IMG/VR virus record: IMGVR_UViG_3300013426_000002
Span: 36,818-100,817 of that record
DNA length: 64,000 nt
From: a virus
Strand: one strand, 5' to 3'
Shown here piece by piece: positions 7,711-41,903 of the stretch (position 1 is its first letter; every line of letters starts with the position of its first letter). The notes under the pieces are model-generated. The model was not told the origin of the DNA. It did no database searches and saw nothing but the letters and a program-made list of their open reading frames with translations. A program made the position numbers and the translations under genes.

Positions 7711-10700
7711 CTAAAAGATTGAAATCAAGTTATCATAATATTCTAACTTAGATCTTGGATCTCTTGCTTCATATATACTTCTTAGAGGAGTTGACTTAAT
7801 TAAGGATCGTTGGAATCGGTTTAAACCACGATATGGTCCTCTATTTATTTCTTGAAATGGATCTTGCAACGCTACAGTAGTTAAGTCTCCCCAATACTGT
7901 AACGTAGACCAAGCTGCTGTAGGACTATTAAGCATATTAAATACTTCAATAGGTAACACATTACCACGAGTTTCCAAAGAGGCTCTTAAAGTAAGATATG
8001 CTGCTTCTTGTTTCCACCAATTATCCCTGTCATCATCTGCCATAGCACGTATTATGGAAGAAATCAACCAGAAACCCAAAGTAGAAAATAAAAATTCATA
8101 TGTGACTCTCTTTAGGCAACCCTTTTCGTAATCATCTAATTCATCATAATGATCTTTATACAATTCTTTTAATTGATCAATCTTGCTTTTGTCAAAATAG
8201 TGTCTTTTTACATATTCATAAGCCGCAGGAATTTGCGCTTCATTCCACAATCCTGTAGAATAGTTGAATTGTCTCTTAGTTAAGAATTTTGTTTGCAGAT
8301 TAACCAAAATAAAATTACGGTATATTAATAATAACTGACCAATCAAATTGGAATGTAATTTTGATTTATCCAAATCTGATAACTGTGTGTCAATTCTAGT
8401 AGCAATTTGTTTAGTAGTGTTTTTTATTCTATTAGAAAGGTTTTCATCAACCACATTAGCATACTCTGGTTTTACTACTAATTGATTGTTTTTAACTTCA
8501 AAAGCATCAAAAAATGTGATATTTAATGCATTCCAAGCAGCTTTACCTTTTTTCTTATCTTTAAATCGTCTTAGAAATTGATTTTTATTTAAAAATTTAC
8601 CAGTTTCAGGATCATATTTATTGAAATATGCAACAGATAGTGCTAGTTTACCCTTAGTGATTATATCACCTATTTCGTGACCAAAATACCAATAATGTTG
8701 ATTTAGAGCTCGCAGTAAACGAGATTGGTTTAATTTACTAAATGTTTGTTCGTTGTCTCTAACTACACCCAAGTATTCAAGATAACACAATACCTTGTTT
8801 TTATTATTGGCTTTACCTATGTTTTTAATCGCATCTGCGTATGCTGGTAGTAAAGTCTTCGTTGCTTTGGCAAGTTCTTCATTTCCAAAGTAAATGCCAG
8901 AAATTGCTTCCAACCTGTTTTGAATTTTATTAGTAATTAAACCTGTCAAGATAACGTTTAAGTTCTGTGATATACCTTGAATTCTGGTATATGCTGCTAA
9001 GTTACTAACCAATTTATCTATGCTTACTCTTGCATGCTTACCTTTTGGTAACGGTATATTAACTTCTTTAGCATCTTTTTCCATACCGTAGACAAAACGA
9101 TTCATCAAATCCTTCATTTTGTCATAAGTTTTACTTTCTACTCCAGATATTCTGCCACCCTTTCTATCTTTAAAATCCATTCTACCAACAAAGTCCAAAG
9201 CTAACTCTAATTCAGGAGCAACTTCACTCATCTTTTCGTAGTTTACAGCCATTTTATAATAATGAATAATAGAACCTACTATATCGTTAGTTATGGCATC
9301 AGGATTGTCTAACATTTTGATATACCTTGTGGGTATTAATTTCACCAAAGAACCATCAGATCTTTTAGCATTTTCTAACATATATCTGTCATCATCATCT
9401 TTTACTGTATAAAGATCATGTGCAGCATACGCTATACCACTTAAGAAGTTATCTTTACTACGTATTTGAGTCCACGCACCACCTTCAATTTGAGGTAATT
9501 TATATTTATTAGCATATCTCAAAAAACCTATCTTAGAATTGGATAAGTCCATTACATCTGTTAAAGCATCGTATAATGCTTTTAATTTAGGATCACTAAC
9601 AATTTTGTTATAAGCAGCAGTGTTATCGAAGTACTTGATATTTGGTATTATTGTCTCACCACGATCTTCATATTTAGTAAATCTAGGATCATAAAATGGG
9701 GATTCTCTATCAATTTCTGCCCACGATTTATTTGGTATTCTTTCTACGTATTTTGATTTAAATTCATCCTTTGGAACTAGCTTACGCCAAAAAGAAGCAG
9801 GTACGATGTCACCCCGAGAAGTATATCTTGCATTTACAGAGAACCACGCGTTAAATGCAGCTTCACCCTGTTTCTCCATATGTTCGTATTCTTCGTAGAA
9901 TTTAGGGTTAATATTCCATTTAGCTATTTCCATTACTCTAGATTTTTTTTGTTTATCTCTATTTGCAATAGCTTCATCGGATATCATTACATCATAAGTG
10001 TTTATCATAGATTTAACGTTTTCAGGCATAGCGTCTACGTTAAATGTACCATCTTCTCTTGCATATAATTTTAAAAGATTTTTTCTAGCATTCTCATACA
10101 ATACTTGATTGTCAGATTTAATTGGATTTGAAGATAACATTTTAACGTCTTCCCAAAAATCTTCTTTTATTCTTTCAACAGAATTTCTTTGTTCCCATTT
10201 TTCAAACAGCTCTGGAGAAAGATTCTTTTTAGCAGCTTCTCTGGCTTTGTTGTATTTCTCCATATTTGGTTTATAATTCAACTTAGCTCTAAGTTTTTTA
10301 TTATATTGCTGCATTTCCTTGGCTATCTCCAAATCTAAACCTGCTTTTGTAGTGCCATCTGCATAAAAAGGATTTGCCAAATTACGTCTACCATTTTCTA
10401 ATTCTTGCAATTTGCCATAATCTTCATCGGATAATAATTCTCTATGTGGGTTACCATCTTTGTCCCTAGTTTTGTTAAGAAGTAGATTGATTTCCATATT
10501 AATTGTATCTCTTCTTGTTCTAGCTTCTTCACTAAGACTGTTGGTCAATTCGTAATATTCTGGTACAAATCTACGGATACTGTATTTAGAATGCCATTTG
10601 TTATTCTCGGTATTCCAAATTTTTAATTGCTCTTTATTTAATAGAGCAGGTACTTCTGATAAGTCTTTATCTCCAAATCCTAATTTATCCGCTAATTCTC

Positions 10701-13545
10701 TTTGAAATTTAAAAAGCTTTTGATAATGTTCACCGTAATTTAAATCTCTGGTCATAAATCCTGTTTTGTGACCATCTTTTGTTTTCTCATGGAAATAAGC
10801 CAGTTTAGATTTATCTACCTGATCTAACAATGATAATAACTCTTTACCTTTGATTCTTTCTTCATCTGCTACAGCATTCTTAACAGCGATTATTTTGTTC
10901 ATCATAATTCTAACTAATTCACTATTAGAATACTGTGTACTACCAACCCATTGATCCCACAAGTTAATATCTAAATCGCCTTCTTCCAGAATGTTTTTCA
11001 ATTGATCTACAGTATATGAACCAGCTTTAGTAGCTTCTTTAATAAAGTTATCTTTAGCAATTATATCAACTACATTATTGAAATTTCTAACAAGTTCTGC
11101 ATAATTGCCCATGATTCTTTTTAATGCTACTTTTGTATCATTAATCAATTGTTCATTATTGAAATAATCAAAAGTAGTATCATCATCTAGCATATTCTGC
11201 AAATTAGTAGCAATGTTGTTATAGAATCCAATATAACCTTTTTTAATCAGATCCAATTCAGCATTAGAGATTTCATGATCATTACCGTATTTAGCAGCTT
11301 CTTTTACTTTGGATAATATTCTTAAAGTTTCATATAATGCAGAATTGATATCTTGATCCATGTAATCTATGAATTCTAAAGTAGCTTTATCATTTTCTAA
11401 TTGATTTAATCTAAATTCTAAAGCTCTCAGTTCATCTAGTTTATTCGGATCTGTATATTTAGAATATTGGATGTCCTTCATTCTACGATGAATAGAAGAC
11501 ATTAATTTGTCATACGTATCATTCACAGCTTTTGGAGTTTCAACAACTTTTTGGTTGTGTATTTCTTTGCCAAAGAAATAAGAATTATCCAACGTACGAC
11601 CAGATAAAAATGCTTTTGTGATTTCGTTTAAAGTGTCTTGTTTTTCATTAAATAATCCTTTTATCCAATTAAAAAATCTATTATACCATTTTAATGCTTT
11701 AACAGAATTCTCACCTATTGCTTGTACTAAAGCTTCTTCGCTACCAAATTGTTTTATACCTCTTTGTACAATAGGCGCATTTCTAAACCAAGCAATGTAA
11801 TGATGAGCATATTCGTGAGGTAAGGTGTCTTGATTTTCTAATGCAGCATTTAATAATACTCTACCAGCCATATATCCTTCTACTTGGGCTTGTCCCCTAA
11901 GATTAGGGTTTGTTAATGCATCTATTTCAATGTTTGGATATATCTCTCGCAGTAATAAAGCTAATTCTTTATTTCTACCAGTAGCGTTTTGAGTAGCAGC
12001 TTCTTGATTATAAATATTATTATCCTGAGTAGAGAATGTACCTCGATTATCTATTGATTTAACTTGGCTTGATCTTCTAACTACTATTTCTCTAGCTTGT
12101 TCATTAGCTTCATAATTATGTTTTACTATAATACCATCTCTAAATACCCAATCATCGCGTCTGGTTTGTGGTATTGTATCTTCTTCTCTGAGGTTTAAGT
12201 ATGTAGCATATAAAGAATTACCTTCAGAAGCATACCTTTGTGCTAATTCTTGATTAGGAGTAAAATAAAAGCCAAAATCAAATTGCCCTCTTCTCTGATA
12301 GTTTTCATCAAAAGTGTCGAAAGTGGCAGAACTTCCATGATACACTACTAAAGGCTCTCCATTTTCATCTACTACTTTGGATACACTAGTTTTAGCTTTA
12401 TTTAAACTTTTCCAATTTTTAAAATCTTCAACATCTTGTTTTGTACCTAACAAATGAACATTTTCTTTCGGATTAAATACCACAATAACATCTGATTCAA
12501 ATTCATTATTTGCTTCATTAGATATAATTGCATCATTTTTATTTTGCTTGGCTTTAGTAAATAATCCTCGTTGTTCTTCATAATAAGTATTCTGATTTTT
12601 CTCTACAATTGGATTTTGTACATTGAGGACTGCTGGATACATCCCTTTTTTTACTTGTCTAGATTTCCAAGCATTTTGAAATTCAGATTTCTTTCTATTT
12701 ACCCAATCATTAAAGGTCTCTTTACCATATCTTATATCAAAGACTTCTTCAAAAAACTCTTTATCTGTTTTATCTTGATATCCGTATCTAGCTTTTCTTT
12801 CTGATAAATACTTTCCGTTAGAACCACCTTTGTCTCTATTAAATATACCTCTTTTATTTGGAGAATATTGCCTAATATTTGGACCTATTATCTCATTTTT
12901 CCAGTCATTAGACTCCATTCTACCATTACCAAGAGCCTCTTTTAATTCCCACCAGAGTTTGACCCAGTTATTATACCCTTCAGTATCAGGAATGTTTCTG
13001 TTTACACCAGAAATATATTGCAATGATGCCCAAGGCTGTTTGTTAAAATACATTTCTGCACCAGTTTCTGGAGCGCCAGATCCTTTACCTTTTTTGGAAT
13101 TAGCAACACCTTGAGATAGATCTGAATCTGTACCATGCCAATATATGGAGTCAATTAAAGAATTTGGATATATAGAATTTATATATTGTGTATATTCTTC
13201 TTTACTACCTACTTTAGATAACTCTGGGTTTATATCATACAAATAATCAACTGCGTCTTTGCTATTAATATCTGTTGATGTGTTACCAACCCAATCTCCA
13301 AACCAATTTCTAAAGCTTTCAGAGTAAGTTCTAGCTTTAGCTTGAATAGCAGCTACTCTATTACCATTATAATGCTCTAAAAGGTCTGAAAATAGCTTAG
13401 ATGGCTCCCCATTGGGAGCCTTATCTAAACCATAGCCATTGTTTTCTGAAAGAACATAATATGCAGCATTCTCACTACCTAATATTTCTGTATACTCTTT
13501 AAGTAAAGCTGCAACTTCTGGATTTTTAATATTTAAACACTGCAT
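7711..13545 (-). CDS. Giant (1944 aa) multidomain virion or ejected 'polyvalent'-type protein
   Basis: Uninterrupted 5.8-kb ORF. Contains WHGT and VVYHGSSATF...FGFYF (H-Y-E ADP-ribosyltransferase-like HG[ST] motifs, near 13125-13140 and 12303-12350). Contains an HExxH motif (LPHEYAHHY, near 11803-11817). The remainder is long and helical. Confidence 0.55.
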   Translation of the reverse strand: MQCLNIKNPEVAALLKEYTEILGSENAAYYVLSENNGYGLDKAPNGEPSKLFSDLLEHYNGNRVAAIQAKARTYSESFRNWFGDWVGNTSTDINSKDAVDYLYDINPELSKVGSKEEYTQYINSIYPNSLIDSIYWHGTDSDLSQGVANSKKGKGSGAPETGAEMYFNKQPWASLQYISGVNRNIPDTEGYNNWVKLWWELKEALGNGRMESNDWKNEIIGPNIRQYSPNKRGIFNRDKGGSNGKYLSERKARYGYQDKTDKEFFEEVFDIRYGKETFNDWVNRKKSEFQNAWKSRQVKKGMYPAVLNVQNPIVEKNQNTYYEEQRGLFTKAKQNKNDAIISNEANNEFESDVIVVFNPKENVHLLGTKQDVEDFKNWKSLNKAKTSVSKVVDENGEPLVVYHGSSATFDTFDENYQRRGQFDFGFYFTPNQELAQRYASEGNSLYATYLNLREEDTIPQTRRDDWVFRDGIIVKHNYEANEQAREIVVRRSSQVKSIDNRGTFSTQDNNIYNQEAATQNATGRNKELALLLREIYPNIEIDALTNPNLRGQAQVEGYMAGRVLLNAALENQDTLPHEYAHHYIAWFRNAPIVQRGIKQFGSEEALVQAIGENSVKALKWYNRFFNWIKGLFNEKQDTLNEITKAFLSGRTLDNSYFFGKEIHNQKVVETPKAVNDTYDKLMSSIHRRMKDIQYSKYTDPNKLDELRALEFRLNQLENDKATLEFIDYMDQDINSALYETLRILSKVKEAAKYGNDHEISNAELDLIKKGYIGFYNNIATNLQNMLDDDTTFDYFNNEQLINDTKVALKRIMGNYAELVRNFNNVVDIIAKDNFIKEATKAGSYTVDQLKNILEEGDLDINLWDQWVGSTQYSNSELVRIMMNKIIAVKNAVADEERIKGKELLSLLDQVDKSKLAYFHEKTKDGHKTGFMTRDLNYGEHYQKLFKFQRELADKLGFGDKDLSEVPALLNKEQLKIWNTENNKWHSKYSIRRFVPEYYELTNSLSEEARTRRDTINMEINLLLNKTRDKDGNPHRELLSDEDYGKLQELENGRRNLANPFYADGTTKAGLDLEIAKEMQQYNKKLRAKLNYKPNMEKYNKAREAAKKNLSPELFEKWEQRNSVERIKEDFWEDVKMLSSNPIKSDNQVLYENARKNLLKLYAREDGTFNVDAMPENVKSMINTYDVMISDEAIANRDKQKKSRVMEIAKWNINPKFYEEYEHMEKQGEAAFNAWFSVNARYTSRGDIVPASFWRKLVPKDEFKSKYVERIPNKSWAEIDRESPFYDPRFTKYEDRGETIIPNIKYFDNTAAYNKIVSDPKLKALYDALTDVMDLSNSKIGFLRYANKYKLPQIEGGAWTQIRSKDNFLSGIAYAAHDLYTVKDDDDRYMLENAKRSDGSLVKLIPTRYIKMLDNPDAITNDIVGSIIHYYKMAVNYEKMSEVAPELELALDFVGRMDFKDRKGGRISGVESKTYDKMKDLMNRFVYGMEKDAKEVNIPLPKGKHARVSIDKLVSNLAAYTRIQGISQNLNVILTGLITNKIQNRLEAISGIYFGNEELAKATKTLLPAYADAIKNIGKANNKNKVLCYLEYLGVVRDNEQTFSKLNQSRLLRALNQHYWYFGHEIGDIITKGKLALSVAYFNKYDPETGKFLNKNQFLRRFKDKKKGKAAWNALNITFFDAFEVKNNQLVVKPEYANVVDENLSNRIKNTTKQIATRIDTQLSDLDKSKLHSNLIGQLLLIYRNFILVNLQTKFLTKRQFNYSTGLWNEAQIPAAYEYVKRHYFDKSKIDQLKELYKDHYDELDDYEKGCLKRVTYEFLFSTLGFWLISSIIRAMADDDRDNWWKQEAAYLTLRASLETRGNVLPIEVFNMLNSPTAAWSTLQYWGDLTTVALQDPFQEINRGPYRGLNRFQRSLIKSTPLRSIYEARDPRSKLEYYDNLISIF

Positions 13546-13547: not shown

Positions 13548-16500
13548 TTATTCACATTCTTTTTTACGTTGTTTACCCATTTTGTCTAATTCTTCAGTAG
13601 CAGAATCATTAGCTGCTTGTTTCAAATCAGCTTCCGTAGCTGATACAAATTCTTCATCTATATCATAGTTTTCCACTACTTGCTGCTTTGCTTTTTCTAG
13701 AGTTTGAACCATTACATAATTCTTTGCTCTAGATACTGCTACGTACTTCAATTCTTGTCTTACTTCTTGACCATTTTTATCATTAAACCCAAAAGTATTT
13801 ATACTACTGTCGTTAATTAAAACTTTACTATAAGTACCACCTTGAGATTTATGAATTGTGTGAGCATATCCGTAATCAAACGATTTTCTAAGCTTTAATC
13901 TACCGTTAGCGTCTTTAACATCTCGCATAGTGTGAATCCTATTTTGTATATTATTGATTTTTTCAATAACAGCTTTAGCTGCAGTCGGATTTCCCTCAGC
14001 TAACAATTGCTTACGCATACTCCACAAGGTCTGTATATATTCTTGAACTTTTATGATATTTTCATCTGTTTCAAAATTAGATACTACATCAATAGTAAAC
14101 GAAGAAGCAGAAGTATCTATTGCGTCTTTGAGAGTAACTTTATATCCTTCCATACTTATACTTTCTTTTCTGTCAGGATATGTTAAATCAATTTGAATAG
14201 TAGTAGGTTTAACACTTTGCACTACGTAGTCTCCACTATTCATTAATTTATACTTCTTTCTTAGAGAATCGTATTCTCTATTAGAATAACCCATTACAAG
14301 TTCTCCTTCATACAGTTGCGCTGGTCTCCTACCATACAGGATTTGTCTTATCGCAGAGTTATAAGCTTCTACAGAAGAGTTTGTCGCAGCCAATACTCTA
14401 AAATATAGAGGGTCTTGTGAATCTTTCATTTCTTTTAATGAAGTTCTAACAAATTCTCTAATTCTATTTTTATCCGCTGTGTATTCAACACCCTGTCCGT
14501 TAGAAGCAATATCAGTTTTATAACTAAAATCCTCACCGTTTCTCACTCTAGTAGATTCTTTCAATATAGGATTATCCCCAGTTCTTTCTACTTTGGTTAA
14601 TTGTAATTGTGCACCATTGTTTCTAAATACCTTGGATATATTATTTGCTTTTACTGGTCTTAATTGACCTTTATCTCCCATAAATATGATCTGAGCTCCT
14701 TTCGCTGCAATTTGCTCAAGTAAGAAATCATATAAACTGTCTTGAATCATTGAGACTTCGTCAACGATAACTATTGAATTAGATTCTATTTTAACATCGC
14801 CAACCTGTTCAAATTTTAACTTGTGCAAATCAAACACATCTTCAGTAATGTTAAAATCCGGGCGCAATCCTAATAAACTTTGAAGCGTAACAACTTTTGC
14901 ATTCGGTGTCTTTTGTCTAGTTACAGCATTTGCTCTATGGGTAGGAGCTGAGAAAATAATATCTGCATTTATTCTACGCTTCAAATATTCATTAAATATA
15001 CCCATAATAGTAGTTTTACCTGTACCAGCATAACCAGATAAAGTAATAGATGTATCATCTCCATTAACAAATGCTTCTAACTCTTTCAAAGCAGATTTCT
15101 GTTGATCATTCAATTCAAAATCTAATTTAACTTCTAAACCATCATCAAAAGTATATACATATTTATCTTGTATTTGCTTAGTTTCTTCAACAGCTTGTTT
15201 TACTTCTTCTACTTTGGGTAAAGCCTCTGTTAAACCTACTTGATTAGCATATTGTTGAAGTTCAGTGAATTGAGTAGGAGTTTCTGAAGATTGTTCATCA
15301 TGAGACCAAGTTTCGGCAAGATTGGTTTCTTTTGCTTCAGTCGGTACTTGCCTTTTTGAACTATATTCAAAATTATCAAGATACTGCTGATATGCTTCTT
15401 GTGATGCAGCTTCACCGTTCTTTGACTGATAAGTTTTAGACCATTCTTTATAAGCTAAAGGTTCAGTATTCTGCAAATCAACATTTTCAGTAGCTACAGT
15501 CTGTAAAGCATTTTCATTGAATTCTCCAGCTTGATTAAACATCTTAGTCTGTAAACTAGCTTTGACAGGAGTTAAATCTTGTACATAAGTTATAGCTCTA
15601 GACGGGGTAAAATCTATACCAGTAGGTACTACATTGTTATAGCCTACAGAAGATTTCTTAAAACCAAACTCAACAAGTACATTACCCTTATAACTTAAAC
15701 CTTTCTTATTAATCAATTGATATACTGGTACTTTATTTTCATCTACACCAATATATTTATATAAGAAAGTAGTTCTAGGATCGTTGTTTTTGTCTAATTT
15801 AACTTTCTTATAAAGATAATGTATAGGATCACCTGCTTCATTATAACCTACAATACCTCTAAATTTACTAGATTCATCATAGATTATAGAAGGTATTTCA
15901 ACTTGTTCTCCTTTCTTATTAGTTACAAATAATCCACTACCATCATGAGCAACAGGTCTATATACTGCTCTACCTTCTTCTTCAATAGTTTCATAGCTAG
16001 AATCCAATTTATAGTATTCAATAGCAGGAACTACATGATCATTCCACCACAGATTTCTGATTACTTCTTGTAAATCTATCTGAGATATAACATTTTCTGG
16101 ATGTTTTTCTAATTCTCTAATATAGTCAAAATATCCTATTTCTTCTCTTATAGAGTTAGGAACGTATCTAAATATATTATTCTTACCAAAAGCATCTCCA
16201 GACGTATAGAAAGAATATATTGCAAGATCTTTAGCAAATTCTCTTACTTCTTTATAATCACTTTCATAAAGTTCTTCCCAAGCACGAATGATCTCATTTT
16301 CCAAATTATTATCACCACTTTTATTAGGTTTGTATGCAATGAAATCAGGTCCTTGTAATTCTGCAGCATCTTCTTTTGGTCTACTAAAGATATTGTTAAT
16401 CAACACATTCGAAAAACTACCATCACTCCCAAGTAATGAAGGATATTTGCCTTGTAATATATCAGATTTAAGTCTATCCAATCTTCTAGAAATACTGTTG

Positions 16501-17936
16501 TTACCAAATAGCATACCACGGAATCCCATTTGATTATCTTTAACATACTGATTAAAGAATTTAGTCTTGTAAGATACTTCCATTGCTCTAGTGATGTTGT
16601 TAATATATGTATCATCACTTACAGCATAACCTTTGGTATAGTATTCAATTAATGATCGTAAGGTTTCAAATTCCGGAGTAAGTCTAATCATGACATTCTG
16701 GAATGCGTTTCTAGGAAATACTAAACCATCAATCATTTTCTTACCTAAGAACGTATTAGTAAACACTTTCAAAGGATTGTTAAAAACAGATTGTTCAGTC
16801 ATATACTGTTTCCATTTATCCAAGAATGCGCTTTGTAAACCAAAGTTATTACCAAATCTTTTAGTATCAATCTGAGATAAGTTAGTTAATTCTGACAAAC
16901 TCTTAGAAAATGGAGTTAATTCTTCATAAGCCTTAAGAATTAATAATTGATTATAATACCAATCAAATGTTTCGGTTTTCTGTAATTGTTTTCTAAGATG
17001 TGGTACAGTAAACATTTCTTTTCTTTGATTAGTACCTACACCTTTATCCTTAAGATAATTCAGAAGATTCTCTTTCTTACCACCGGATAATTCTTTTGCT
17101 TTTTTATAATAATCATTCCAAACCTTGGTAAATGCTAATCTTTCAGGATTTTTACCAGCAGGTATTTCAACGCCATAAAAACCAGAATATTTATCATATT
17201 CAGTTGCATAGTCTTTCAATATCTGTTGAGGTAAGAAATAAAATGTACTTTCACCTTTACCACTTCTAATTAAGAAGTTAGTCATGTTAAAAGTTAATTT
17301 ACGTACATTCAAACGAATAATATACGGATCTTTAGCTACGTCTACGTGAGCATTAATCAAAGCTGATAACCAGTCTAATACATTGATTTTATTAGCATCT
17401 TCACTCTGAATATGATGCAAATCACGTATACCGTAATCGTTCAATACTTTATTTGGTTTGAAATTCAACTTAACTAATTGAGTTAATACTTGATGAGCAT
17501 TAGCTAATGCAAACGGACCAATACCAAACTTACCACCATTCAACTCAGCTTTAGTTCTACTCTGGAATGCCGGAGTAGAGAAATACAATTGAGATTTACT
17601 AGTTCTCTTACCTTGACCCGTTAATTTATCAACATCCTTAAGAATTTTGTCTTTCAGATAATCTGTTACAGTATCAAGAGGCTGTCTAGCTTCTGCAAAG
17701 TTCATAGGATTGCTGATTACTGACAAATACATATCAAGAAGCATATTTTCGTTTGCTTCTCTACTATTTGCTTCAAAATCAGTTTTACCATTATATCTCT
17801 CATAAGCTTTTCTTACTACAGTTTCATCATCTAAACCAGTAGCTTTCAGTCTCCGAACATACTGATCTTTTGTTTCAAACTTGATTCTATTACCATTATT
17901 ATCGTAGTTATATCTTGCTATAAATAATTTATCAAT
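13548..17936 (-). CDS. Exon 2 of the giant intron-split gene (putative virion RNA polymerase C-terminal part plus SF1 RecD/Dda-like helicase module)
   Basis: The frame of the 1398-aa ORF stays open 5' of its first ATG up to 17969. Helicase motifs are LSGYAGTGKTT (Walker A, near 15010-15036), IVIVDEVSM, FMGDKGQLRPV, YAHTIHKSQGGTY and YVAVSRAK. The exon start at 17936 is inferred from the intron 3' end (see the intron feature). Confidence 0.7.
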   Translation of the reverse strand: MDKLFIARYNYDNNGNRIKFETKDQYVRRLKATGLDDETVVRKAYERYNGKTDFEANSREANENMLLDMYLSVISNPMNFAEARQPLDTVTDYLKDKILKDVDKLTGQGKRTSKSQLYFSTPAFQSRTKAELNGGKFGIGPFALANAHQVLTQLVKLNFKPNKVLNDYGIRDLHHIQSEDANKINVLDWLSALINAHVDVAKDPYIIRLNVRKLTFNMTNFLIRSGKGESTFYFLPQQILKDYATEYDKYSGFYGVEIPAGKNPERLAFTKVWNDYYKKAKELSGGKKENLLNYLKDKGVGTNQRKEMFTVPHLRKQLQKTETFDWYYNQLLILKAYEELTPFSKSLSELTNLSQIDTKRFGNNFGLQSAFLDKWKQYMTEQSVFNNPLKVFTNTFLGKKMIDGLVFPRNAFQNVMIRLTPEFETLRSLIEYYTKGYAVSDDTYINNITRAMEVSYKTKFFNQYVKDNQMGFRGMLFGNNSISRRLDRLKSDILQGKYPSLLGSDGSFSNVLINNIFSRPKEDAAELQGPDFIAYKPNKSGDNNLENEIIRAWEELYESDYKEVREFAKDLAIYSFYTSGDAFGKNNIFRYVPNSIREEIGYFDYIRELEKHPENVISQIDLQEVIRNLWWNDHVVPAIEYYKLDSSYETIEEEGRAVYRPVAHDGSGLFVTNKKGEQVEIPSIIYDESSKFRGIVGYNEAGDPIHYLYKKVKLDKNNDPRTTFLYKYIGVDENKVPVYQLINKKGLSYKGNVLVEFGFKKSSVGYNNVVPTGIDFTPSRAITYVQDLTPVKASLQTKMFNQAGEFNENALQTVATENVDLQNTEPLAYKEWSKTYQSKNGEAASQEAYQQYLDNFEYSSKRQVPTEAKETNLAETWSHDEQSSETPTQFTELQQYANQVGLTEALPKVEEVKQAVEETKQIQDKYVYTFDDGLEVKLDFELNDQQKSALKELEAFVNGDDTSITLSGYAGTGKTTIMGIFNEYLKRRINADIIFSAPTHRANAVTRQKTPNAKVVTLQSLLGLRPDFNITEDVFDLHKLKFEQVGDVKIESNSIVIVDEVSMIQDSLYDFLLEQIAAKGAQIIFMGDKGQLRPVKANNISKVFRNNGAQLQLTKVERTGDNPILKESTRVRNGEDFSYKTDIASNGQGVEYTADKNRIREFVRTSLKEMKDSQDPLYFRVLAATNSSVEAYNSAIRQILYGRRPAQLYEGELVMGYSNREYDSLRKKYKLMNSGDYVVQSVKPTTIQIDLTYPDRKESISMEGYKVTLKDAIDTSASSFTIDVVSNFETDENIIKVQEYIQTLWSMRKQLLAEGNPTAAKAVIEKINNIQNRIHTMRDVKDANGRLKLRKSFDYGYAHTIHKSQGGTYSKVLINDSSINTFGFNDKNGQEVRQELKYVAVSRAKNYVMVQTLEKAKQQVVENYDIDEEFVSATEADLKQAANDSATEELDKMGKQRKKECE

Positions 17937-18841
17937 CGCTACTACCTTATGATTTCCATAAGGGCTAGACTATATCTTCACTTTGATAGTGCTTCCCATT
18001 TCACCTTTCGGCTACACAGCGTGTGTGCGCTGACTCAAATCATATTGAATTTTATGAAGCATTGAAGGAATTTGTTCAACATATGGTTTTACGATGTCTA
18101 TAAACTTTATTCCTTCTTTTGTTCCACAGCATAAAGAATAACTGTTTTCTTTTTTACCTTCGTGAAACATGTAAAAATCAATATTCCAAACTTCTTTAAA
18201 GTAATCTATTATTGTTTGTAATTCCTCTTTTGGCATACAGGTTGCAATTTTTATATAGAAACCGTGAACTTTACCATTTGTTTTTCTATAATTTATATGT
18301 CCATCATCCATATACCAGATTGCAATTCCTTTAGCATCTAGTCTGTTTAATAGTTTTCTATTTCCCAATTTTTTATTAGGTTTATAAAAAACTCTTCGCA
18401 AGACTTTTATAAAAGGTATAATATTTAATTGAGTGTAATAAACTTTTTTACCTGTATTATAACCTTTAACACTGATGTATTCTTTTAAACCATTGTTTCG
18501 TAAACCAGCGTCTTTAAGTTGTTTTATTTTCCACTCAAGATAATCACGTTGTTCTTCACAATGACTTAATTTAAATACATTGTTATTGCTTATTGTTCCA
18601 TCACCAAGTAAAAGAGCTATCAATAAATTTCTAGATTCTTTAGTTATTTTTGTTTTCATACTTGCTATCCATTTAGGAAGCTTCCATTGAGTATTAGTCG
18701 TTGAACCTTCCGATTAGTTATATAGATAACGATCGGCTTGGCTGCTGGTTGCCCAATCCCTTGGATTTTTACTACACTTAGTACCTTAGGCTCTAAGGGG
18801 TTTCCAGCAATTAAAGAAGTTTTGTTTCGACTATTGTGTTA
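17937..18841 (-). mobile_element. Group I self-splicing intron carrying a LAGLIDADG homing endonuclease ORF in the P8 loop
   Basis: Read on the minus strand. P1 pairs exon UUCGAU with intron GUCGAA, with a U.G pair at the splice site. P element AAUUGCUGGAAA is at 18801-18812. Q element AACCAGCAGCC is at 18740-18750. R element GUUCAACGACUAAUA is at 18692-18706. S element AAGAUAUAGUC is at 17968-17978. P8 pairs GCUUCCUA with UGGGAAGC and brackets the ORF. The P9 hairpin is CCUUAUG-GAAAU-CAUAAGG. The terminal G is at 17937. Confidence 0.85.
18012..18659 (-). CDS. LAGLIDADG homing endonuclease (double-motif, intron-encoded)
   Basis: Two LAGLIDADG motifs: LIALLLGDGTIS and GIAIWYMDDGHI. About 215 aa. 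Lies inside the group I intron. Confidence 0.9.
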   Translation of the reverse strand: MKTKITKESRNLLIALLLGDGTISNNNVFKLSHCEEQRDYLEWKIKQLKDAGLRNNGLKEYISVKGYNTGKKVYYTQLNIIPFIKVLRRVFYKPNKKLGNRKLLNRLDAKGIAIWYMDDGHINYRKTNGKVHGFYIKIATCMPKEELQTIIDYFKEVWNIDFYMFHEGKKENSYSLCCGTKEGIKFIDIVKPYVEQIPSMLHKIQYDLSQRTHAV

Positions 18842-21800
18842 ATCGAAGTCTGACCCAGTAAGGGCTGTAAATTCATCAGGAAGAGTAATAGTATCACCAA
18901 TCTGTTCAGGATAAACGTCTACCACTTTTAAAGCTGCTGTAGAAGCCTGACCTTGCGCAGGGATACGATAACCCATTGCTATTGCCTTTGTATCTGGACC
19001 AATTATATCGTGGTTTATTAACCATTCTTTAGCTTGACTGAAAGTCATTTTATCATAACCAGGTATAATGTGCTTCAACAAGTTAATTGATATAACACAA
19101 TCCATACTACCATCGTCATTGACAAAATTAAGCTTTCTTACATTGTTAACATCAGACGTTACAGCCAGTCTGTTATACAAGATGGAAGACATCTGAATAA
19201 ACATACCACCTGGTAAATTAGTATCTACTATGGCTTTGTTCAACATTGATATAAGACCGCTTTCAATCCAAGAGTTATCAGACAAACCTGAAATAGGAGC
19301 ATTAGTATTGCCATCTTCTACAGTAAGACCATTCAAAACATTATCATTCATGTTTGAATTTTCTGCTTTTCTCTTAAGAATATTAGCAAATTTAACAATG
19401 CTGGCTTGTGGATTATTAGCATCAATACCAAAGTCTTTTTCTATACTCTTTCTACCAAATTCGGTAATGGCATTATGAGCTCCGTTGAAGTTGTCAATAA
19501 CCTCTTGTCCAGAATAAGGTACTCCATCAGGAGTAGTATATGTCCAAGCTGTTCTAATGTTACCCATAGCTGCTTTCTGAGCCTGAGATACAAACATTTG
19601 TCTATCTGCATGGTGTGGATCAGTTACTAGCTGACGTCTAAAATTAACTAAAGACTGTTTGTGAGTAGGCATATTCATCAAACCCTCGATATCTACCTTA
19701 GTATTTGATTTATCTGTGTATATCTTAGATTTAACTTCTTCAACTCTTTGGCCAACCTTAACTGCAGATTCAAATGCAAGCATGTGAATGTTTCTAGCTT
19801 GCATTACTTTCAACACTTCTCCCATGTCCCCTGTAGAGAATATTCTATGAACCGGGAACATTGCCATCTTGTCGAATACAGGTATATCTCTTTTTGCATT
19901 TATATCATAATGATCACCGAAGTACATTAATTTTAAAGGTTTTAATGTAACGGCTAGTGCTTCATTATAAGTATCTGCATCAGCTTCATAATCTGTTTCA
20001 GGGTTATTCAATATATCAAAAGCTTTAGCTACTTCAGGAGTCCAACCATCAATTCTTCTCACTAATTCTTTATAGAATTCAGGAGAAATAAGTACAGTAG
20101 CGTCCGTTTGGTTTACTTTGGTATAACCACCGAATTTACTATCAACTACAAGATTAGCAGCATCTTCAACATCTTGAGGTAATGCTTCACCACTTTCATA
20201 AGCAGCAAGAGCTTCTTTTTGGGTCATGTTGTGCATTTCCTGCAATAATCTCACTGCCGCTGATTTCTTCGCAAATTCATTAATTTTACTAAGCTGTCTA
20301 CTAGGTATTACATTATCTGATAATGTACCCACATTAACTTCAGTCAAATTTGATAACTCATTACCTTCACCGTAGTCTATTCTAGGCGTAACACCGGTTG
20401 ATAATACTTCACGAAGACGTTTGATTTTGTCTACAGGATCTTTATAATATGCAGGATCTTTGACAAATAATTTTTCAAATTCTATTACTGAAGATACAGT
20501 ATTAGCAAAATAATTTGCCATCAATTCTGTAGCAGCTAATTCCTTGCTGTATTTTGATACTTCTTGACGCTTCTTATAATGATTTTCCGCATCATCTAAT
20601 GCTTTTTGAGGAAGTGCTAAACTCTTTACACTAGCAAAATCTTTGCCATTCCAATCAATAATACCTATTTCCTTTGCATAATCTAATTCATCTTTAAAAG
20701 CATCTGTTAGATAGTTATTCATTAACAAAGCTTTATCAGAGTTACTCATCTTTGCCCAAGAAGCCTTTATTTGGTTTACTACGGATAATGCTAAATCACT
20801 ACCACCAATGTCTTCAGCGAGTTTAAGAGCTTCATTGAAGTTAGAAAAGTCATCTACAAATTCAATGCCACCTAAGGTTGGTTGTTCTTTAAGCTTAAAG
20901 AATCCATTGAAATATCTAAATCTATAACCATTTCTATTGCCTGTATCGTAGTTCTTTACTTTTTGTGCTTTAGTTAGGTTGCCTTCATTCTTATAGTTGA
21001 ATTCAATAGTATCTAATTCAGTTTCAAAGTAATTAATAAATCTAGTTAATACTTTGGCATTAAATTTAACTTGATTGTTAGTGGTATCTAAAGGCTGATT
21101 GAAATTGTTGATAGCTGTGCCATATAAAGTATTATATGTTTGAGAGTCACCCATAGTAGGTAAAATAATTCTACCTTTTTGAGTAAGTGTCATTTTAGCA
21201 ATATAATCTTCTAATGGCGAGATTTCTGTGTATTTACGTCCTTTATCACCACTACCTTGTTCTTTAAAATAAACCAAAGTTTCAACACCTATTTTTCCAG
21301 ATACTGTAGGATTATTATAAAGATTTGTAAGCAAATAAGAACCCTTAAAATAATTAGGGTTAGCATTATTACCGGTGTTATATAACACCTTAGTAAAGGC
21401 TTCTACTGTTGCTGGGTCATTATCAAGATTCTGAACCATATCTGTTAAATAATTATGATCAGATATGGGATATAACAGTTTACCGTCCGTAGATAATACT
21501 GATAATTCATCAGAATTGGGGTGTGTCATACCATAAGTTTCGGACAATCTACCTAAGAATTTAGAATCATCGTAATATCGACTAATGTGTTTGTTATACG
21601 TGCCTGGTACATTACCGGATGGTTCAATTTTTAATACATCCTTTAATTTATTACCAAATAAAAACGATAAACCAGCATTACTACCGTCATTAAACAAATT
21701 TGTTAACTGTTCTGCAGGATTTGGATCATAATATTCTTTAATTAAAAATGAATTTAATGTATCCATATCTATAGATACTCCCGCTCTATTTAAGAGTGAT

Positions 21801-24800
21801 AATATATTATCCTTTATTTTGATAACGTTAGCTTCTACATATTCTTTGTATGTTTGACCGTTCTTAAGTTTGGCGTTCGGTTTGTTTTTATAGCTTTTGA
21901 GTAAATTATTAATTTTGTGGTAATCATCCAGCAATAACTCTATATTAGTTTTATTATCGGTGGTTTTTAATGAATAACTATCACCATCAAAGTTTATCAA
22001 CTCAGTCATCCTAAGTAAACCATAATTCCACCCTTCTATAATGTTTTTGGAAATCTTATTTGCGTTCTCATCTTTTACATACAAATTAGTTTGGTCATTA
22101 TCATTGTTTTCAATTTTTTCAGACAAGATACCAATAAGTTTGTGTTTGGCTTTTCTAAAAGTATTCCTGAATTGAGTTTGTAAATTTTCTCTAGCTATTA
22201 CTTGGGTTTCTGTTTCCCCAGGAACTGGTTTTGAAATCTTGTATAATTCTCTATATAAAGTATCAAAAAGAGGTAATGATTTTGCACATTTTGCACATTT
22301 ATTCATCATACCTTCAAAGGTGTTCTCTGAGTGTAATTCGTTGATTATTGTATTCCATGAAGAATCGAAATCAACCATGAGCGGTAATCCGGTAACAGGG
22401 CTTAATACAGTTCTGGTTTTCTGTACCTTTACAATTGTGCCATCTTCTTTCTTAACTTCTGCCTCATAGAATTCTCTTTTAGGCATGGAAGCAATGAAGA
22501 TTTTAATAGATGCCAAAGCATTATCTTTTACTGAGGTTTCTAATGATTCACGAATGTATGTAGCCATCTGATCGCCTACAGCAGAACCTTCGGCTTTTTC
22601 GTCTATTTCTTGGTCAATATTTTCCTGTTTGTCTACAGCTCTGATTTGATATTCATTTAGTTTCCTAATAATTGCTGGAAGAAATACATTATCAAAAGTT
22701 TCATAGATTTCTTTTCTAGCTTCTCCTTGTTCTTTGGTAATCTTTCCATTCTCTACAAGCTTGTCTGTTAAAGAAGGTTCTAGAGCATTTTTTAACAAAC
22801 TATAATTCAAGCCTGTTAAATCATCTCGCATCTTTACGTTATTCAAAGTAAATAAAGAAGCAACCAATGAATTAACACTTTCTTTGAATTGTGTATTTGT
22901 AATGTTTTTAAAATCGTGACCACCTAATTTAAATGGGGCTCCTGCACCTTTGTATTCATTTAAAAACTCCTGTACAGCTGCAGAATTTTGTTTAGATCTA
23001 TTGTAGTATCCTGTATTAATTCTATCAAAAATATTATCAATAGTAGCGTCTGTTCTCCAAACCCATTTACTAATGAAGTTTTTAATTGCTTTCCAAGCTC
23101 TTTTTATGATATTTAAATCAGGTTCAACTTTGTTTAACATGTATTGTCTAAAATCTTCCGCAAGAGACTCTTCAACATCTTTATCTGTACCAATTAAACC
23201 AGTTCTATTTCTATAAGCTTCATATATTTTATGACGTTCTTTAGGTGAAATAGTTAATAATGATATTCTATGATATGCTTCATGATATAAAGTACCTGTT
23301 TCTGCACCTTTCCAGAGTAAAGTAGAATCTTGTTTAACAAGTCCCATTGCATACACATTGTTACCTAATGATATAGCATCGTCTACTATAGTGAGAGAAT
23401 CACTTTGGAAACCCAATTTCTTTTTAAACCATTCTATTTCTTCATTAGAAACTTCTTTGGTTACTTTACCAGTAAGACGTCGCATGGGAATATCAATGTC
23501 GTCATCCTCTATAGCAAATGGATCAATTGTCCCGTTTTTAGTGATTTCGTTGATTCTTTTTGCTTCTTCTGATAATTCTGTTGGTTCTACTGCAGCAACA
23601 CTGGTAGGTACATTTGCTATATTTTCAACTTTGTTTTGAGTTTTTTCAACAGCTTTAGGACTCTCTACTTTTTTAGATATAGTTTGTATATCATCAGCAT
23701 AAGCAAAAGAGTCTTTAAACAATTGATCTTGTAAGTCACTTTTGATTAAATTACTGTCAACAAACAAACCCATTGTATATAATGGGTGATGTTCATTGTT
23801 ACCTAAAAAATCATCTTTATAAAAGGTTACTCCTGGTATAATGTCTTCTTGCAAATACGAACTACTTTTTGCAAATGCTTCTTTTAAAGAGGGTAAAGCA
23901 TTACCTACAGGACTAAAGAAATTTTCTCTATTGGCTCTCCAGTGAAATCCCATCAAATCGTTGACAAGGTCCACTTTATCTTGAGAAGACATATTCCCGA
24001 TATGGTAAGATTTTTCTCCTACTACAAGATCCCCTTTATCATTTACATAAAGTTGCTTCTTTTTCATCCAATTAAAAGTAGGAATATCAGACGTAACTTT
24101 AGTATTATCTCCAAAGCGAACCATGAAGTTTATTAATTCGCCAGCAACAATTTCTGTGTCTTTATAATAAGATTCAGGAGAGGCTCCGTAATTCAAAAGC
24201 AAATCTGCAAGAAACTCGGCTTGTTTTCTGTCAAATCTTTGTAAATTAACTTGTACTGGTATCTCTGAATTATTGAGTGTGCTAGATTTTGGAGGATAAA
24301 TGAACAACTGACCACTACCCCCAGTACCATTTAATATTTCACCACCCGCACCAAGAATTAAGCTATCAGAAATAATACCATTACTGATACCAAAGGTTAC
24401 ATTTTCTGGAGTAATATCATATTTATTACTAGGAAATTTGAATCCTTTTACTTCTTGCACAGGTCTAAATACCGCTCGCTGACCATTTCTATTTATATTG
24501 TATTTACCACGAGTCCTACTGATTGTGCTCGGTACAATAACCTCATTGTTGGTCTTGTTTTCAATAGCAGTAATGATTGCATTTCTAAAAGATTTTAAAT
24601 CATTTATAGAAACTTCATTAGCCTGTTCAATTGTATTTAATTCTTCTGCTGTAGCTCTATCACGAATACCTGCAATATCCGCATCAAATTTAGTTCTAGC
24701 TCCTTTAGGGGTCTTAAGTGCTAAAGCGTACTTACCGGTAGGATGTTCTACACTCAATATAATAGAAGTATTATCATATGTAGTTTTATCACCCTTTTTA

Positions 24801-27800
24801 TATGGTTTACTACCTTTTTCAGTGTAAGATTCATTAATAATGAACTCACAGAAACTATCTGCAAAGAACTTGGGATCTTTGATTCTTTCTGCTAATTCTT
24901 TACCAGATTTATAACCAGGTAACATAGGAGTTGTGGAATCTGGTGAAAAGAACAATGTGTGTGATACTGTATCTTTAGCCAATTCTTCTATTTCTAAAGA
25001 ATCTTCATATTCTCTAGACTCAGAATCCATATCTGTTTTGCTATCATGTTTCTGTTCGGTAGCTAATTTCTTTTTAGCTTGTTCAACTTTTTGCTCTACT
25101 GTAATATCTGGAGTAATAGTATCTGCTGTTTGTGAAACTTTTTTGTCTTCATCTGTTGCAGCAGCTAAAGGATCTGCATCTTCATTAGCAACCTTTTTTA
25201 AATCTTGAGGTGTAGCAAAAGCAAATTCTTCATCCTCTTCTTCCACATCTTCTACTACAGGTTCTTTCTGTTTGCTCTCTTCTGCAATTTTGTTACGTTC
25301 TGCTTCAAATTCTGCAGCTAGGTCTTCTAAACTTTTTGTAGGGAATTCCTCATCACGTTTAGTAGCTGGTTCTGTTTTTTCTTCAGGTGTTGTTTCAGGA
25401 GCAGGAAGCGGTGATGGTGCAGGTATTTCTGTGTTTACTTTGGATTTTGCTCTAGAATCCATTATAGGAGATTGCGGTTTTTCAGCTTCTTTTTCCTGTA
25501 CTTCTGGAGCAATTTTGCTTGTGGCTACAGTTTCATTATTATCTGTGCCATTATTAGCTACTTCTTTTTCTGTAGAAGCAATATCCTGTTCAACAATCTG
25601 CCTAGCGTTATCTTCCGCAATTCTACTAGACTCGTCTGAATTATTTAGATAATTTTCAATTCTCTTTTTGATATTGTTTAGTACCTTTTTCTTTGATTTA
25701 TCTGTAGCCTTGTCAAAACTAGTAAGTTTACCGTTTTCCAAAACATTACCGAAAATCTCATTCATTTTGTGTTCTGATACTAAAGCATCATGTTGAGCTA
25801 ACATCAAATTTGCATAGCTATCCACACCAGTTTGCATGATGTGAGGAGCAGCTACAAAATCTGTACTGAACTTTGTATTAGCAGCTACTTGAGCCAACTG
25901 GCTATCAATGTTTTTAATGGCATTTGGTATAGTCTTTAAAATAGATTTGGCTACAGAATTATCACTATCAGTAATACCAAATTTAGTTTTGCCAGCTTCT
26001 ACTGGAGCTTCAATTGCATTCTTCAACTCCTGTAAAGCTTCTTTCTGTACATTTAACTTAGTTAAAGTAATGGCTGCCAATTTTTCTTCAGGAGTGTAAT
26101 TACTTAATAAAGCATCTTCAGAAAGATCTGCATACAATTTATTGTCAGCATCTTGAGCTGTTTTTGCATTATTAACAGCTTCTTGTAAATCTAATTGTGC
26201 TACATGTTGCAAACCAATTAAGGTGTTATATTCCGTAGTTCCCGCAGAATAACCTAATTGCTTACCAATATTCTTTGTAGTTTTTGATTTAGCTAAATTA
26301 AATACATTGTTTGCCGTTTGAATTTCAGCATTTATGTCATCCTCAGTAATACCGTCAGGCATGTGATATTTAAAGTTTTCTAATACTTCAATCACACTGT
26401 CTTTATAATTGAGCATAGAGTTTGATGCTTTGTCCGCATATGTGACAGCTTTGTTCATAGCGTCTTTTTTAGCTATGTTGTCTGCAACCATATCCCTAAC
26501 AAACGTATTGGCAATAAAATCTTTACGCATGTCAATACCTGCGTGATACGCTGTGGTAGGACCACCCATATACATACCCAATGCAAATCCACCTTTCACG
26601 TCATTCCAGAATTGAGGATCATTTGCCAATTCTGATTCAGTGTCTATTCCTGATAGAATTTTTGCGGTACGATAATTAGCATCAGCTAACCCAAGTAACG
26701 ATGAAAAAATGCCAGAAGAATCTTTATCATACTGATTGTGAATGTAATCATAATCAAATATGTCCTGATTACCTTCTTCAAAAGCTTCCCCAGTAGCAGC
26801 AAAACCCATACGAGCAAGAGCTTTAGCCCCTTTACTTAACATATTCATTTTGGGACTATTGTAAGCCAATCTGGCATTAAATCCTGTGTATGCGTCAACT
26901 AGTTTATTATATTTCTTAGTAGCGGTATCCGACAATTTGGCTAATGGTTTTAATGCTTTACTTATGGGTTTGGTTATAATCTTACCCATAGCTTTACCCA
27001 ATGGAGCAAACATCAAAGCAGATTGTGCAACATCCATTGCGGACAAAGCCATGTTATTATTATAAACATTTTCTAGACCATTATTTGCTGAAGCTTTTAA
27101 AGAATTCAAAACTTCATCGGATATTTTGATTTCACCAGATAAAGTTCTGTCTATAATTTCATCGTCTGAAATTTTTGTAACATCTATATTAGGATTCTGT
27201 TGTTTTAATTGATCCCTCCCCATTTGAACATAATCTTGAATAGATACACCTTTATCTTCAAGATCTTTTTCAATTTTAGAACGGTATGCTCCGTACACTT
27301 GGGCTAATGATTCTCTGTGTCTACTATAAATATTTCCTGCTAAACTTATTGCTGTAGCTGCAATTGCTGTACCCCAACCAACAAGATTAGCTGCTGCTCC
27401 AACACCAGGAATTGCATTTAAAAGTCCAGTAGTTGCATAATGTCTGCCTAACCACAATGCACCTGTAGCTAAAGCATCAGCTACATAAGATTCAATGGTT
27501 GACATAGAAGAACCTGTTAATCCAGGACCTGCATACAATAAATAATCAGAATCGTAAAAAGGTTTATCCTGAGCCTTTTGTTCTTTTATTTGAAACCTGG
27601 CAGAAGGTTTATATTTTTCAGATCTAGAAGTAATAGAATCATAATAATCTTTAATATTATCATTTACTTCGGATTGTTCGTTTACCCACCAATCTCTTAC
27701 ACCATTCAAGTATTCAATTCTTTTATCTACATCATTACCTTCTGAATCATTGTATTTTTCTAATATGGCATTATATTTTTCAGAATTGGTTCTTAAATTG

Positions 27801-28252
27801 TTTTTAAGAATTTCATACTGCTGTAAAGTGTTTTGATATTCTTGGGAACTTTTATCCATAGTAGGTAAAACATTCTCAAGATTTAAGAGCATTTTCTTAT
27901 CATTCAAATATTGTAATTCATAATCAATATCTTCAATGACAGGATTAATATCTTTTACTAATTTTGCTCTTTCAGACATCAAATTAATTTGATCTCTATT
28001 GTTAGCAAAAGTAGTCCATGCGTCTTGCAAATAGCTTTTATCTTTTAGTGTTTCTTCTGGATTGTCTTTATTCAGCAAATACGCATATTCATAATCGTCT
28101 AATGGAGTTGTTTCTAAATTCCTATCATAACCTGTTTTAATGTTGGTAATAGGAGAATACTGAGAATTAACCATGTTTACAGCATTACTTAATAATGCTG
28201 CTTTACTTGGTGTATTTTCAGTAGAATATTGACCTAATATAGATTTTTCCAT
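18842..28252 (-). CDS. Exon 1 of the giant intron-split gene (3137 codons; putative virion RNA polymerase N-terminal part with membrane-active and zincin-like regions)
   Basis: 9.4-kb ORF. The N-terminal region has Gly/Ala-rich hydrophobic segments (...LNAIPGVGAAANLVGWGTAIAATAISLAG...). An E/P/K-rich low-complexity linker spans about 25200-25650. An HExxH motif (LYHEAYHRI) lies near 23268-23285. The ORF ends ...TALTGSDFD, and its TAA stop is formed by the first intron nucleotides. Confidence 0.75.
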
Positions 28253-30091: not shown

Positions 30092-30093
30092 AA

Positions 30094-32094: not shown

Positions 32095-32095
32095 A

Positions 32096-41107: not shown

Positions 41108-41109
41108 AC

Positions 41110-41568: not shown

Positions 41569-41903
41569 TAGATTATACTTTTAGCTACACTTGCTTTCAA
41601 TTTAGATCTAAAGTCTAAGAAGTCTTCATATCTCTTCTTACAGTTTTCATCTTCTGTTAAACCTAATTGAAATGCAAAATAATCATTTAACATCTTTAAT
41701 TGATAGTTAACATCCCAATTGTCGATCAATACATTTCTGATAATAGAATCATCATTTACATTTGATTCATTAATTATTACCTGTTCACATTCATAATACG
41801 TAGAATCACCATCTTTTACTTCTTTAATATTGTAATTGAAAGCGTAAGAATGATCATCTAACTTCTGTATCATTTCAGGACGTTCATCATACTGTGATTT
41901 CAT
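41568..41903 (-). CDS. Small acidic hypothetical protein (111 aa)
   Basis: ORF with overlapping stop and start to the downstream gene. Confidence 0.45.
   Translation of the reverse strand: MKSQYDERPEMIQKLDDHSYAFNYNIKEVKDGDSTYYECEQVIINESNVNDDSIIRNVLIDNWDVNYQLKMLNDYFAFQLGLTEDENCKKRYEDFLDFRSKLKASVAKSII

Follow-up and report, generated by a model that had tools for sequence, protein, structure and literature searches.

A probable group I intron with a LAGLIDADG endonuclease gene inside the DFDID codons of the virion RNA polymerase gene of a crAss-like phage

The DNA analyzed here (hereafter, the window) is a stretch of 64,000 nucleotides (nt) from the virus record IMGVR_UViG_3300013426_000002. 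It belongs to a crAss-like phage, as its G+C content was 33% and its top DNA matches were Crassvirales genomes from faeces. On the minus strand, two giant open reading frames (ORFs) of 3137 amino acids (aa) (28252..18839) and 1398 aa (17744..13548) lie approximately 1.1 kb apart, and a third ORF of 215 aa (18659..18012) is located in the gap. The question raised by this locus is whether the giant ORFs are two genes or one gene that is interrupted. An earlier note, made from the letters alone, had proposed that a group I intron containing a LAGLIDADG gene joins the two ORFs into one gene of about 4599 codons. The present analysis supports this proposal, and a probability of roughly 0.93 was assigned to the reading that 18841..17937 is a group I intron splitting one gene. 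All positions are given in window numbering, and the intron and both exons are read on the minus strand. The three parts of the locus are as follows.

18841..17937, minus strand: predicted group I intron of 905 nt, with UAA as its first bases and a terminal G at 17937 (basis: empty-site homologs, half-matches to the Rfam model RF00028, and covariation).
18842..28252, minus strand: exon 1 of the predicted virion RNA polymerase gene, 3137 codons, ending in ...LTGSDFD (basis: ORF list, match to the phage cr50_1, and match to the structure 6VR4).
13548..17936, minus strand: exon 2, 1462 codons and a stop, starting with IDKLFIARY (basis: frame open from 17936 and colinear with cr50_1).

When 18842 was joined to 17936, a single open frame of 4599 codons was obtained, reading ...LTGSDFD/IDKLFIARY... 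(here and below, a slash within a sequence marks the insertion point), and the predicted spliced junction sequence was ...GGGTCAGACTTCGAT/ATTGATAAATTATTT... The nearest annotated relative, cr50_1 of the Suoliviridae, shared 67% aa identity over 4000 residues and carries the gene as an uninterrupted coding sequence (CDS) of 4774 aa (QOR58058.1). The cr50_1 DNA at the empty site, GACTTCGAT/ATTGATAA, has the same letters as the joined window exons, and the boundary bases showed that the junction cannot slide by any nucleotide. The alleles at this site were then surveyed with a 160-aa query across the junction, which was searched against viral contigs. Among contigs of the same species (97–99% aa identity), eight were uninterrupted and six were interrupted, all six exactly between query residues 60 and 61. 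In the cr50_1-like group (84–86% identity), 22 contigs were uninterrupted, and five were interrupted two codons earlier. At the junction, the joined exons matched cr50_1 as well as the eight intron-less same-species alleles, all of which carry the gene in one piece. The predicted splice sites, which the earlier note had placed after 18842 and before 17936, are thereby fixed to the nucleotide. Two further details of that note were found in the letters: the TAA stop of the 3137-aa ORF (18841-18839) consists of the first three intron nucleotides, and the downstream frame is open for 75 codons before the ATG of the 1398-aa ORF, 64 of them from the junction.

The position of the insert within the protein is equally defined. 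The insertion is in phase 0 and separates the codons of the second Asp and the Ile in GSDFD/IDK; accordingly, the third Asp of the DFDID motif is cut off from the first two. The spliced protein matched the phi14:2 gp66 RNA polymerase (PDB 6VR4) with E=3e-32 in a phmmer search, and the DFDID motif was formed only once the exons were joined. DFDID serves gp66 as its metal-binding motif, and the enzyme becomes inactive when any one of the three Asp residues is replaced (bioRxiv 10.1101/2020.03.07.982082). On this homology, the interrupted gene is predicted to encode a gp66-type virion RNA polymerase of crAss-like phages, fused to a Dda/RecD-like helicase.

Evidence that the insert is a group I intron was obtained from Rfam. 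When a 1.2-kb region was searched in evalue mode, RF00028 (Intron_gpI) matched 18851..18598 on the minus strand with 45.8 bits (E=3e-10), a stretch that runs from P1 to the 5' strand of P7. A second half-match at 18144..17945 on the minus strand (35.9 bits, E=3e-7) covered the 3' strand of P7 and P9. The 45.8-bit half-match (E=2e-8 window-wide) was the only Rfam match with E<=0.01 in the 64-kb window. In addition, a natural 276-nt intron that lacks the ORF and occupies the same site in other contigs scored 78.6 bits with RF00028 (gathering score 50), with E=5.5e-19.

The four classical core elements that had been read from the sequence were all present on the minus strand, namely, P (AAUUGCUGGAAA, 18812-18801), Q (AACCAGCAGCC, 18750-18740), R (GUUCAACGACUAAUA, 18706-18692), and S (AAGAUAUAGUC, 17978-17968). 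The secondary structure was evaluated by covariation. For this, 34 related introns, of which 33 were distinct, were recovered via their endonucleases and aligned with MAFFT. The predicted elements, including those with lesser support, are listed below; MFE denotes the minimum free energy fold of an ORF-deleted construct of the window intron.

18826..18847, minus strand: P1/P10 guide region, with exon UUCGAU (18847-18842) pairing with intron GUCGAA (18831-18826) and U18842.G18831 at the 5' splice site.
18814..18819, minus strand: 5' strand of P3, CUUCUU, pairing with 17997-17992 and located directly upstream of P4.
17992..17997, minus strand: 3' strand of P3, GGGAAG, assigned to P8 in the earlier note; the Rfam alignment of the ORF-less allele puts this strand at the same position.
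18742..18810, minus strand: P4, UUGCUGG (18810-18804) with CCAGCAG (18748-18742), enclosing the P5 extension; 97.8% paired, nearly invariant, and fitting the Rfam consensus.
18710..18736, minus strand: P6/P6a hairpin, CCGAU...AUCGG, with both-side changes at 5/5 pairs of this stem.
18695..18699, minus strand: 5' strand of P7, GACUA, within R, invariant in 33 introns; its partner is UAGUC at 17972-17968.
17968..17972, minus strand: 3' strand of P7, UAGUC, within S (basis: alignment and Rfam alignment).
17979..17991, minus strand: P8 hairpin, CACU-AUCAA-AGUG (17991-17988 with 17982-17979), 97.7% paired, 3/4 pairs covarying; the same P8 appears in the Rfam alignment of the ORF-less allele.
18033..18038, minus strand: 3' strand of a candidate P7.1, UUGAGU, inside the 3' end of the ORF, with ACUCAA (18692-18687) as its partner; 78% paired, with moderate support.
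18004..18011, minus strand: P7.2-like hairpin, CC-GAAA-GG, immediately behind the ORF stop; also seen in the MFE fold and matched by a hairpin there in most relatives; 52% paired, poorly aligned.
17945..17963, minus strand: P9 hairpin, CCUUAUG-GAAAU-CAUAAGG, followed by UAGUAGCG ending in G17937 (basis: sequence, Rfam alignment, and MFE fold).

Across the 33 introns, the whole structure was 82% paired, compared with 30–45% when the partners were slid by 1–3 columns. In the case of P3, 97.5% of the cells were paired, and both-side changes were detected at 5/6 pairs. Compensatory changes were thus found in P3, P6, and P8, while P4 and P7 were always paired and conserved, with GACUA of P7 present in every intron; these two helices scarcely vary and are therefore uninformative for covariation. 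The candidate P7.1 showed both-side changes at three pairs, all of them at synonymous codon positions of the endonuclease ORF. One proposal of the earlier note was overturned by the comparison. The strings GCUUCCUA and UGGGAAGC, which were claimed to pair as P8 and to bracket the ORF, exist, but only 62% of their cells were paired on the 34-sequence alignment against 60% in shuffles; this P8 was therefore rejected. As GGGAAG is the 3' strand of P3 and P8 is formed by CACU/AGUG, the endonuclease ORF is not located in the P8 loop but follows the 5' strand of P7 and precedes the 3' strand of P3. In the definition reportedly given by Michel and Westhof in 1990, subgroup IA introns carry the additional helices P7.1/P7.2, which follow P7 and precede the 3' strand of P3. 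The architecture of the window intron, with its extra helices in that interval, tentatively resembles this subgroup.

The guide pairings connect the ribozyme with its exons. In the window, the P1 helix with its U.G pair was read exactly where it had been claimed, and P10 is formed by intron CAAU (18836-18833) with exon-2 AUUG (17936-17933). Among the relatives scored by a script, 28 of 30 showed P1 with a U.G pair at the splice site, and all related copies, like the window intron, end in G. Moreover, P10 covaries with the start of exon 2, the observed combinations being AUUG/CAAU, GUAG/CUAU, AUAGAU/AUCUAU, and GUUGAUA/UAUCAAU. The script demanded pairing of the first exon-2 base, and P10 was consequently under-reported for introns inserted between the first Asp and the Phe of DFDID (the D/F site); by eye, UUGAUAUUG was found to pair with CAAUAUCAA in these introns.

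As the earlier note had stated, the insert contains a LAGLIDADG ORF, which was identified with the following coordinates.

18012..18659, minus strand: LAGLIDADG homing endonuclease gene, 648 nt, 215 aa, with its own ATG and stop (PF03161, PHROG 11023).

The match to PF03161 (LAGLIDADG_2) scored 79 bits against a cutoff of 25 (E=5e-22) and covered profile positions 3-167 of 168. The ORF is intact, and both LAGLIDADG motifs, LLLGDG and WYMDDG, have their acidic residues in place. The match to I-SceI (1R7M) was weak (E=1e-3). With its two motifs, the predicted enzyme is of the monomeric I-SceI-like type. In relatives with TAG recoding, in-frame TAG codons were also observed in this gene: the endonuclease ORFs of L005, L020, L027, L032, L033, L035-L037, L040, and L048 (the L numbers denote individual related sequences) contain 1-4 in-frame TAG and no TAA or TGA, and 3-37 in-frame TAG were counted in the polymerase exons of these ten loci. 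No in-frame TAG is present in the endonuclease ORFs of three other recoded relatives, L013, L014, and L042. Over the phages that read TAG as sense, with 12-37 in-frame TAG per approximately 1800 exon codons, the endonuclease ORFs showed 0-4 in-frame TAG and no other stops. The mobile endonuclease gene appears to have drifted into the genetic code of its host phage.

The distribution of the intron was compared with that of its host gene, with protein identities between relatives determined by blastp. The endonuclease shared 66–98% aa identity with its relatives, while the flanking polymerase exons were mostly 22–35% identical. In L007, exon identity was 29%, compared with 94% for the endonuclease and 93% (nt) for the intron. 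A 98%-identical copy is present in another full-length contig (L006), and homologous introns were found in the Steigviridae (cr116_1), in other Suoliviridae (cr131_1), and in a rodent-gut phage. Within the species of the window, four of the interrupted contigs (L113, L114, L115, L117 at 1225-1500) carry the ORF-less 276-nt intron at the exact window site, and their 75 nt of upstream exon were 100% identical to the window. This short intron is a mosaic and no simple deletion derivative, since parts of P5 and P6 differ from those of the window intron. On comparing the intron-less alleles (L085-L091, L119) with the intron-bearing ones, synonymous substitutions clustered within approximately 25 nt on both sides of the site (18842-18870 and 17910-17936), and the sequences were identical beyond. 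This cluster could be a co-conversion tract or a set of endonuclease-resistant target variants. The coexistence of intron-less, ORF-less, and endonuclease-bearing alleles fits the picture expected of a homing cycle.

A mechanism can be proposed from these features. In the late transcript, exogenous guanosine would attack after U18842, and then, with exon 2 aligned by P10, the freed 3' OH of exon 1 would attack after G17937. The ligated mRNA would encode one 4599-aa protein with an intact Mg-binding DFDID motif, whereas unspliced RNA would yield a polymerase truncated after DFD. During co-infection, the endonuclease would cut intron-less DFDID alleles, and repair off the intron-bearing genome would copy the intron, together with a short flanking tract of exon, into the recipient; this step would constitute homing.

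Several points weigh against this reading of the locus or narrow it. Self-splicing and endonuclease activity are what we infer from sequence. An Rfam scan of the whole 64-kb window at the gathering threshold gave no match, and the window copy never reached the RF00028 gathering score (50 bits) in one match. The earlier note had looked to this model for confirmation, which was obtained as two significant half-matches on the minus strand (45.8 and 35.9 bits), neither of them at the gathering score because the 648-nt ORF splits the model. The single-sequence MFE fold had a z of only -2.5 and favoured the GCUUCC/GGGAAGC pairing of the earlier note over P3/P4, although P1, P6, P7, P7.2, and P9 were recovered. 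As this fold was not decisive, covariation was used; as it favoured the earlier P8, that proposal was reasonable from one sequence, and only the comparison overturns it. The P9 hairpin before the 3' end, also claimed earlier, was found in the letters at 17963-17945, in the Rfam alignment, and in the MFE fold, but it was only approximately 40% paired on the MAFFT alignment and so was not confirmed there. Since MAFFT misaligned both P9 and P7.2, their pair counts (approximately 40% and 52%) carry little weight in either direction. With P7.1 and P7.2 only moderately supported, the intron is assigned to its subgroup tentatively. In the case of the guide pairings, 30 of the 33 relatives were covered by the script, which chose spurious short U-A helices in L023 and L041; there the U.G helix was found only by eye, as was P1 of L044, L046, L047, and L048.

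Three other explanations were considered for the same observations. The first is a decaying intron that splices inefficiently or needs a protein cofactor or maturase, in which case the genome would be defective or would rely on a factor from the host or a phage. The coexistence of ORF-less and intron-less alleles in the species would suit a cycle of gain, decay, and loss. However, the window intron is intact in all its conserved core nucleotides and guide pairings and retains the U.G pair and the terminal G, its endonuclease ORF has no stops and keeps both catalytic motifs, and a 98%-identical copy is found in L006. Decay was therefore considered very improbable.

The second explanation is that the polymerase is truly split into two translated subunits of 3137 and 1398 aa, with a free-standing endonuclease gene between them and RNA elements that are relics of an intron and do not splice. 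GenBank gives three separate CDSs in cr116_1, cr131_1, and bajarodcaudo virus 1, and an ATG is available at 17744 for the second subunit. Yet the frame stays open over the 64 codons before this ATG, which run colinear with the cr50_1 protein in its uninterrupted form, and the third essential Asp would be parted from the first two. At every site the guides follow the exon sequence, and covariation is seen in the core helices, a pattern expected only with RNA structure under selection. Same-species alleles are uninterrupted. Two separate subunits were thus regarded as scarcely credible.

The third explanation, an intein or another in-frame protein-level element, has a precedent in the LAGLIDADG inteins described as common in crAss-like phages (PMC7886860, in the part of the text available), but it is refuted by the sequence, as the insert opens with an in-frame TAA and has more stops before exon 2 (e.g., TAG 17967-17965), the endonuclease has its own ATG and stop, and no Hint domain was found in the Pfam search.

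With a group I intron as the preferred reading, the related copies can be compared by their insertion points. Homologous introns and endonucleases (L003-L048, comprising viral contigs and GenBank phages) were found at four adjacent codon boundaries of the DFDID motif, all in phase 0 and all after U.

GSD/FDID: cr131_1 and L008-12, among others.
GSDF/DID: L035, L036, L039, L040, and L042.
GSDFD/ID: the window, cr116_1, and others.
GSDFDI/D: L048, the only copy at this site.

At each of the four sites, the identified P1/P10 guides fit their own site; the script established this for most copies, and L023, L041, and L044-L048 were read by eye. In the introns of L008-L012 (IMGVR_UViG_3300045988_078617 and others, ~2794-3730), which belong to cr50_1-like phages, the guide P1/P2 region and the 3' tail are of the D/F-site type, while the core was 88% (nt) and the endonuclease 91% (aa) identical to the window intron of the D/I site. 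This suggests that they are chimeric introns, formed by recombination or module exchange between introns at neighboring sites. Taken together, one intron and LAGLIDADG family may have colonized four adjacent boundaries within the 15 nt of DFDID across Crassvirales, each copy with guides for its own site, exchanging modules and spreading between families and into TAG-recoded phages. This reading is held tentatively, with somewhat less than an even chance of being correct. If true, it would represent natural retargeting of a ribozyme by change of its guide sequence, with a single endonuclease target region being shared, and it may be previously undescribed.

The joined polymerase protein has further parts, one of which was located by profile searches.

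~13709-15116, minus strand: predicted C-terminal Dda/RecD-like helicase (Pfam AAA_30, E=9e-28, and UvrD_C_2; PHROG 325, Dda-like helicase, E=8e-84).

An HExxH zincin-like motif was also observed at aa 1657 (~23284, minus strand). The host gene is homologous to that of phi14:2 gp66 (E=3e-32) and shares its DFDID motif; the gp66 chain has 2194 aa, whereas the window protein is approximately twice as long (4599 aa) and adds the HExxH motif and the C-terminal Dda-like helicase. The polypeptide is a polyvalent giant protein. Its gene is flanked by very large minus-strand ORFs (1944, 611, 666, and 1370 aa) at 7711-13545 and 28256-36208, with gaps of 1-3 nt, and this packed region is the 'transcription gene block' of crAss-like phages. 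Elsewhere in the window, no other RNA family matches and no tRNAs were found. A plus-strand match to the snoRNA snR5 (20.5 bits, E=0.55) was dismissed as chance. The minus-strand gene train has two other gaps of ~600 nt, at 41.6-42.2 kb and 56.2-56.9 kb; small ORFs were present in both, with no RNA family match.

Public annotation was compared in MT774389 (cr116_1, 39997-50862), NC_055902 (cr131_1, 47198-65316), PQ006092 (53623-61806), and MT774375 (65825-80149). The polymerase exons and the endonuclease are entered there as separate hypothetical proteins, and uninterrupted polymerase genes carry labels such as 'DNA helicase', 'DprA-like protein', and 'nuclear pore complex protein-like protein'. 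The two giant ORFs of the window should be annotated as one virion RNA polymerase-helicase gene of 4599 codons. In the records of cr116_1, cr131_1, and bajarodcaudo virus 1, the two halves appear as hypothetical proteins with no relation to each other, so many crAss-like genomes call for this correction as well. Every infection starts with this polymerase, which would be made only after RNA splicing; this offers a testable case of self-splicing in a Bacteroidales phage. The four-site family, with three allele states in one species, provides a natural system for the homing cycle and for shifts of insertion site, and the intron family may mark recombination between co-infecting gut phages.

Both group I introns and LAGLIDADG genes are already known from crAss-like phages. 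In the part of the text available, Yutin et al. 2021 (PMC7886860) report group I introns in core genes of Delta (Suoliviridae) and Zeta crAss-like phages, list LAGLIDADG as an intron-encoded endonuclease in the legend of Fig. 3 on the transcription gene block, and describe disruptions within the DxDxD motif in Zeta phages. As far as that text shows, the introns were apparently detected via protein domains, and the exact site, RNA structure, guide pairings, and four-site pattern were not found in it, figures aside. The word 'intron' occurs 0 times in the phi14:2 gp66 paper (bioRxiv 10.1101/2020.03.07.982082), and a search of the literature on DFDID or Crassvirales introns found nothing more specific.

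The general arrangement is classical. It is well established that group I introns with homing endonucleases interrupt essential phage genes at catalytic sites, and the understanding of group I introns is unchanged by this case. The window intron shares with the T4 td, nrdB, and sunY introns, the DNA polymerase introns of the SPO1 family, and those of AR9/PBS1 the P/Q/R/S core and the insertion at a catalytic site of an essential gene. An intron-encoded homing endonuclease and sporadic presence among close relatives are also common to them. The introns of T4 and SPO1 encode GIY-YIG or HNH enzymes. Unlike introns of the T4/SPO1 type, the window intron has a crAss single-chain two-barrel virion RNA polymerase gene as its host and encodes a LAGLIDADG enzyme, and it accommodates its ORF after P7 and before the 3' strand of P3 instead of in the P6, P8, or P9 loops. 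The core from P3 to P7 (18695-18824, nt 18-147 of the intron) showed 75–76% nt similarity to sequences of the Bacillus jumbo phages PBS1, AR9, and Internexus, one of them within an annotated terminase gene, which we take to be group I introns. This core similarity crosses very distant host phyla. In the case of the endonuclease, the closest parallel considered was I-SceI, encoded in the omega intron of the yeast mitochondrial large-subunit rRNA gene. Both are two-motif LAGLIDADG proteins of the monomeric type, of approximately 215-235 aa, located inside a group I intron; the sequences are very distant, and I-SceI targets rDNA, whereas the predicted target of the window enzyme is a protein-coding site of a phage.

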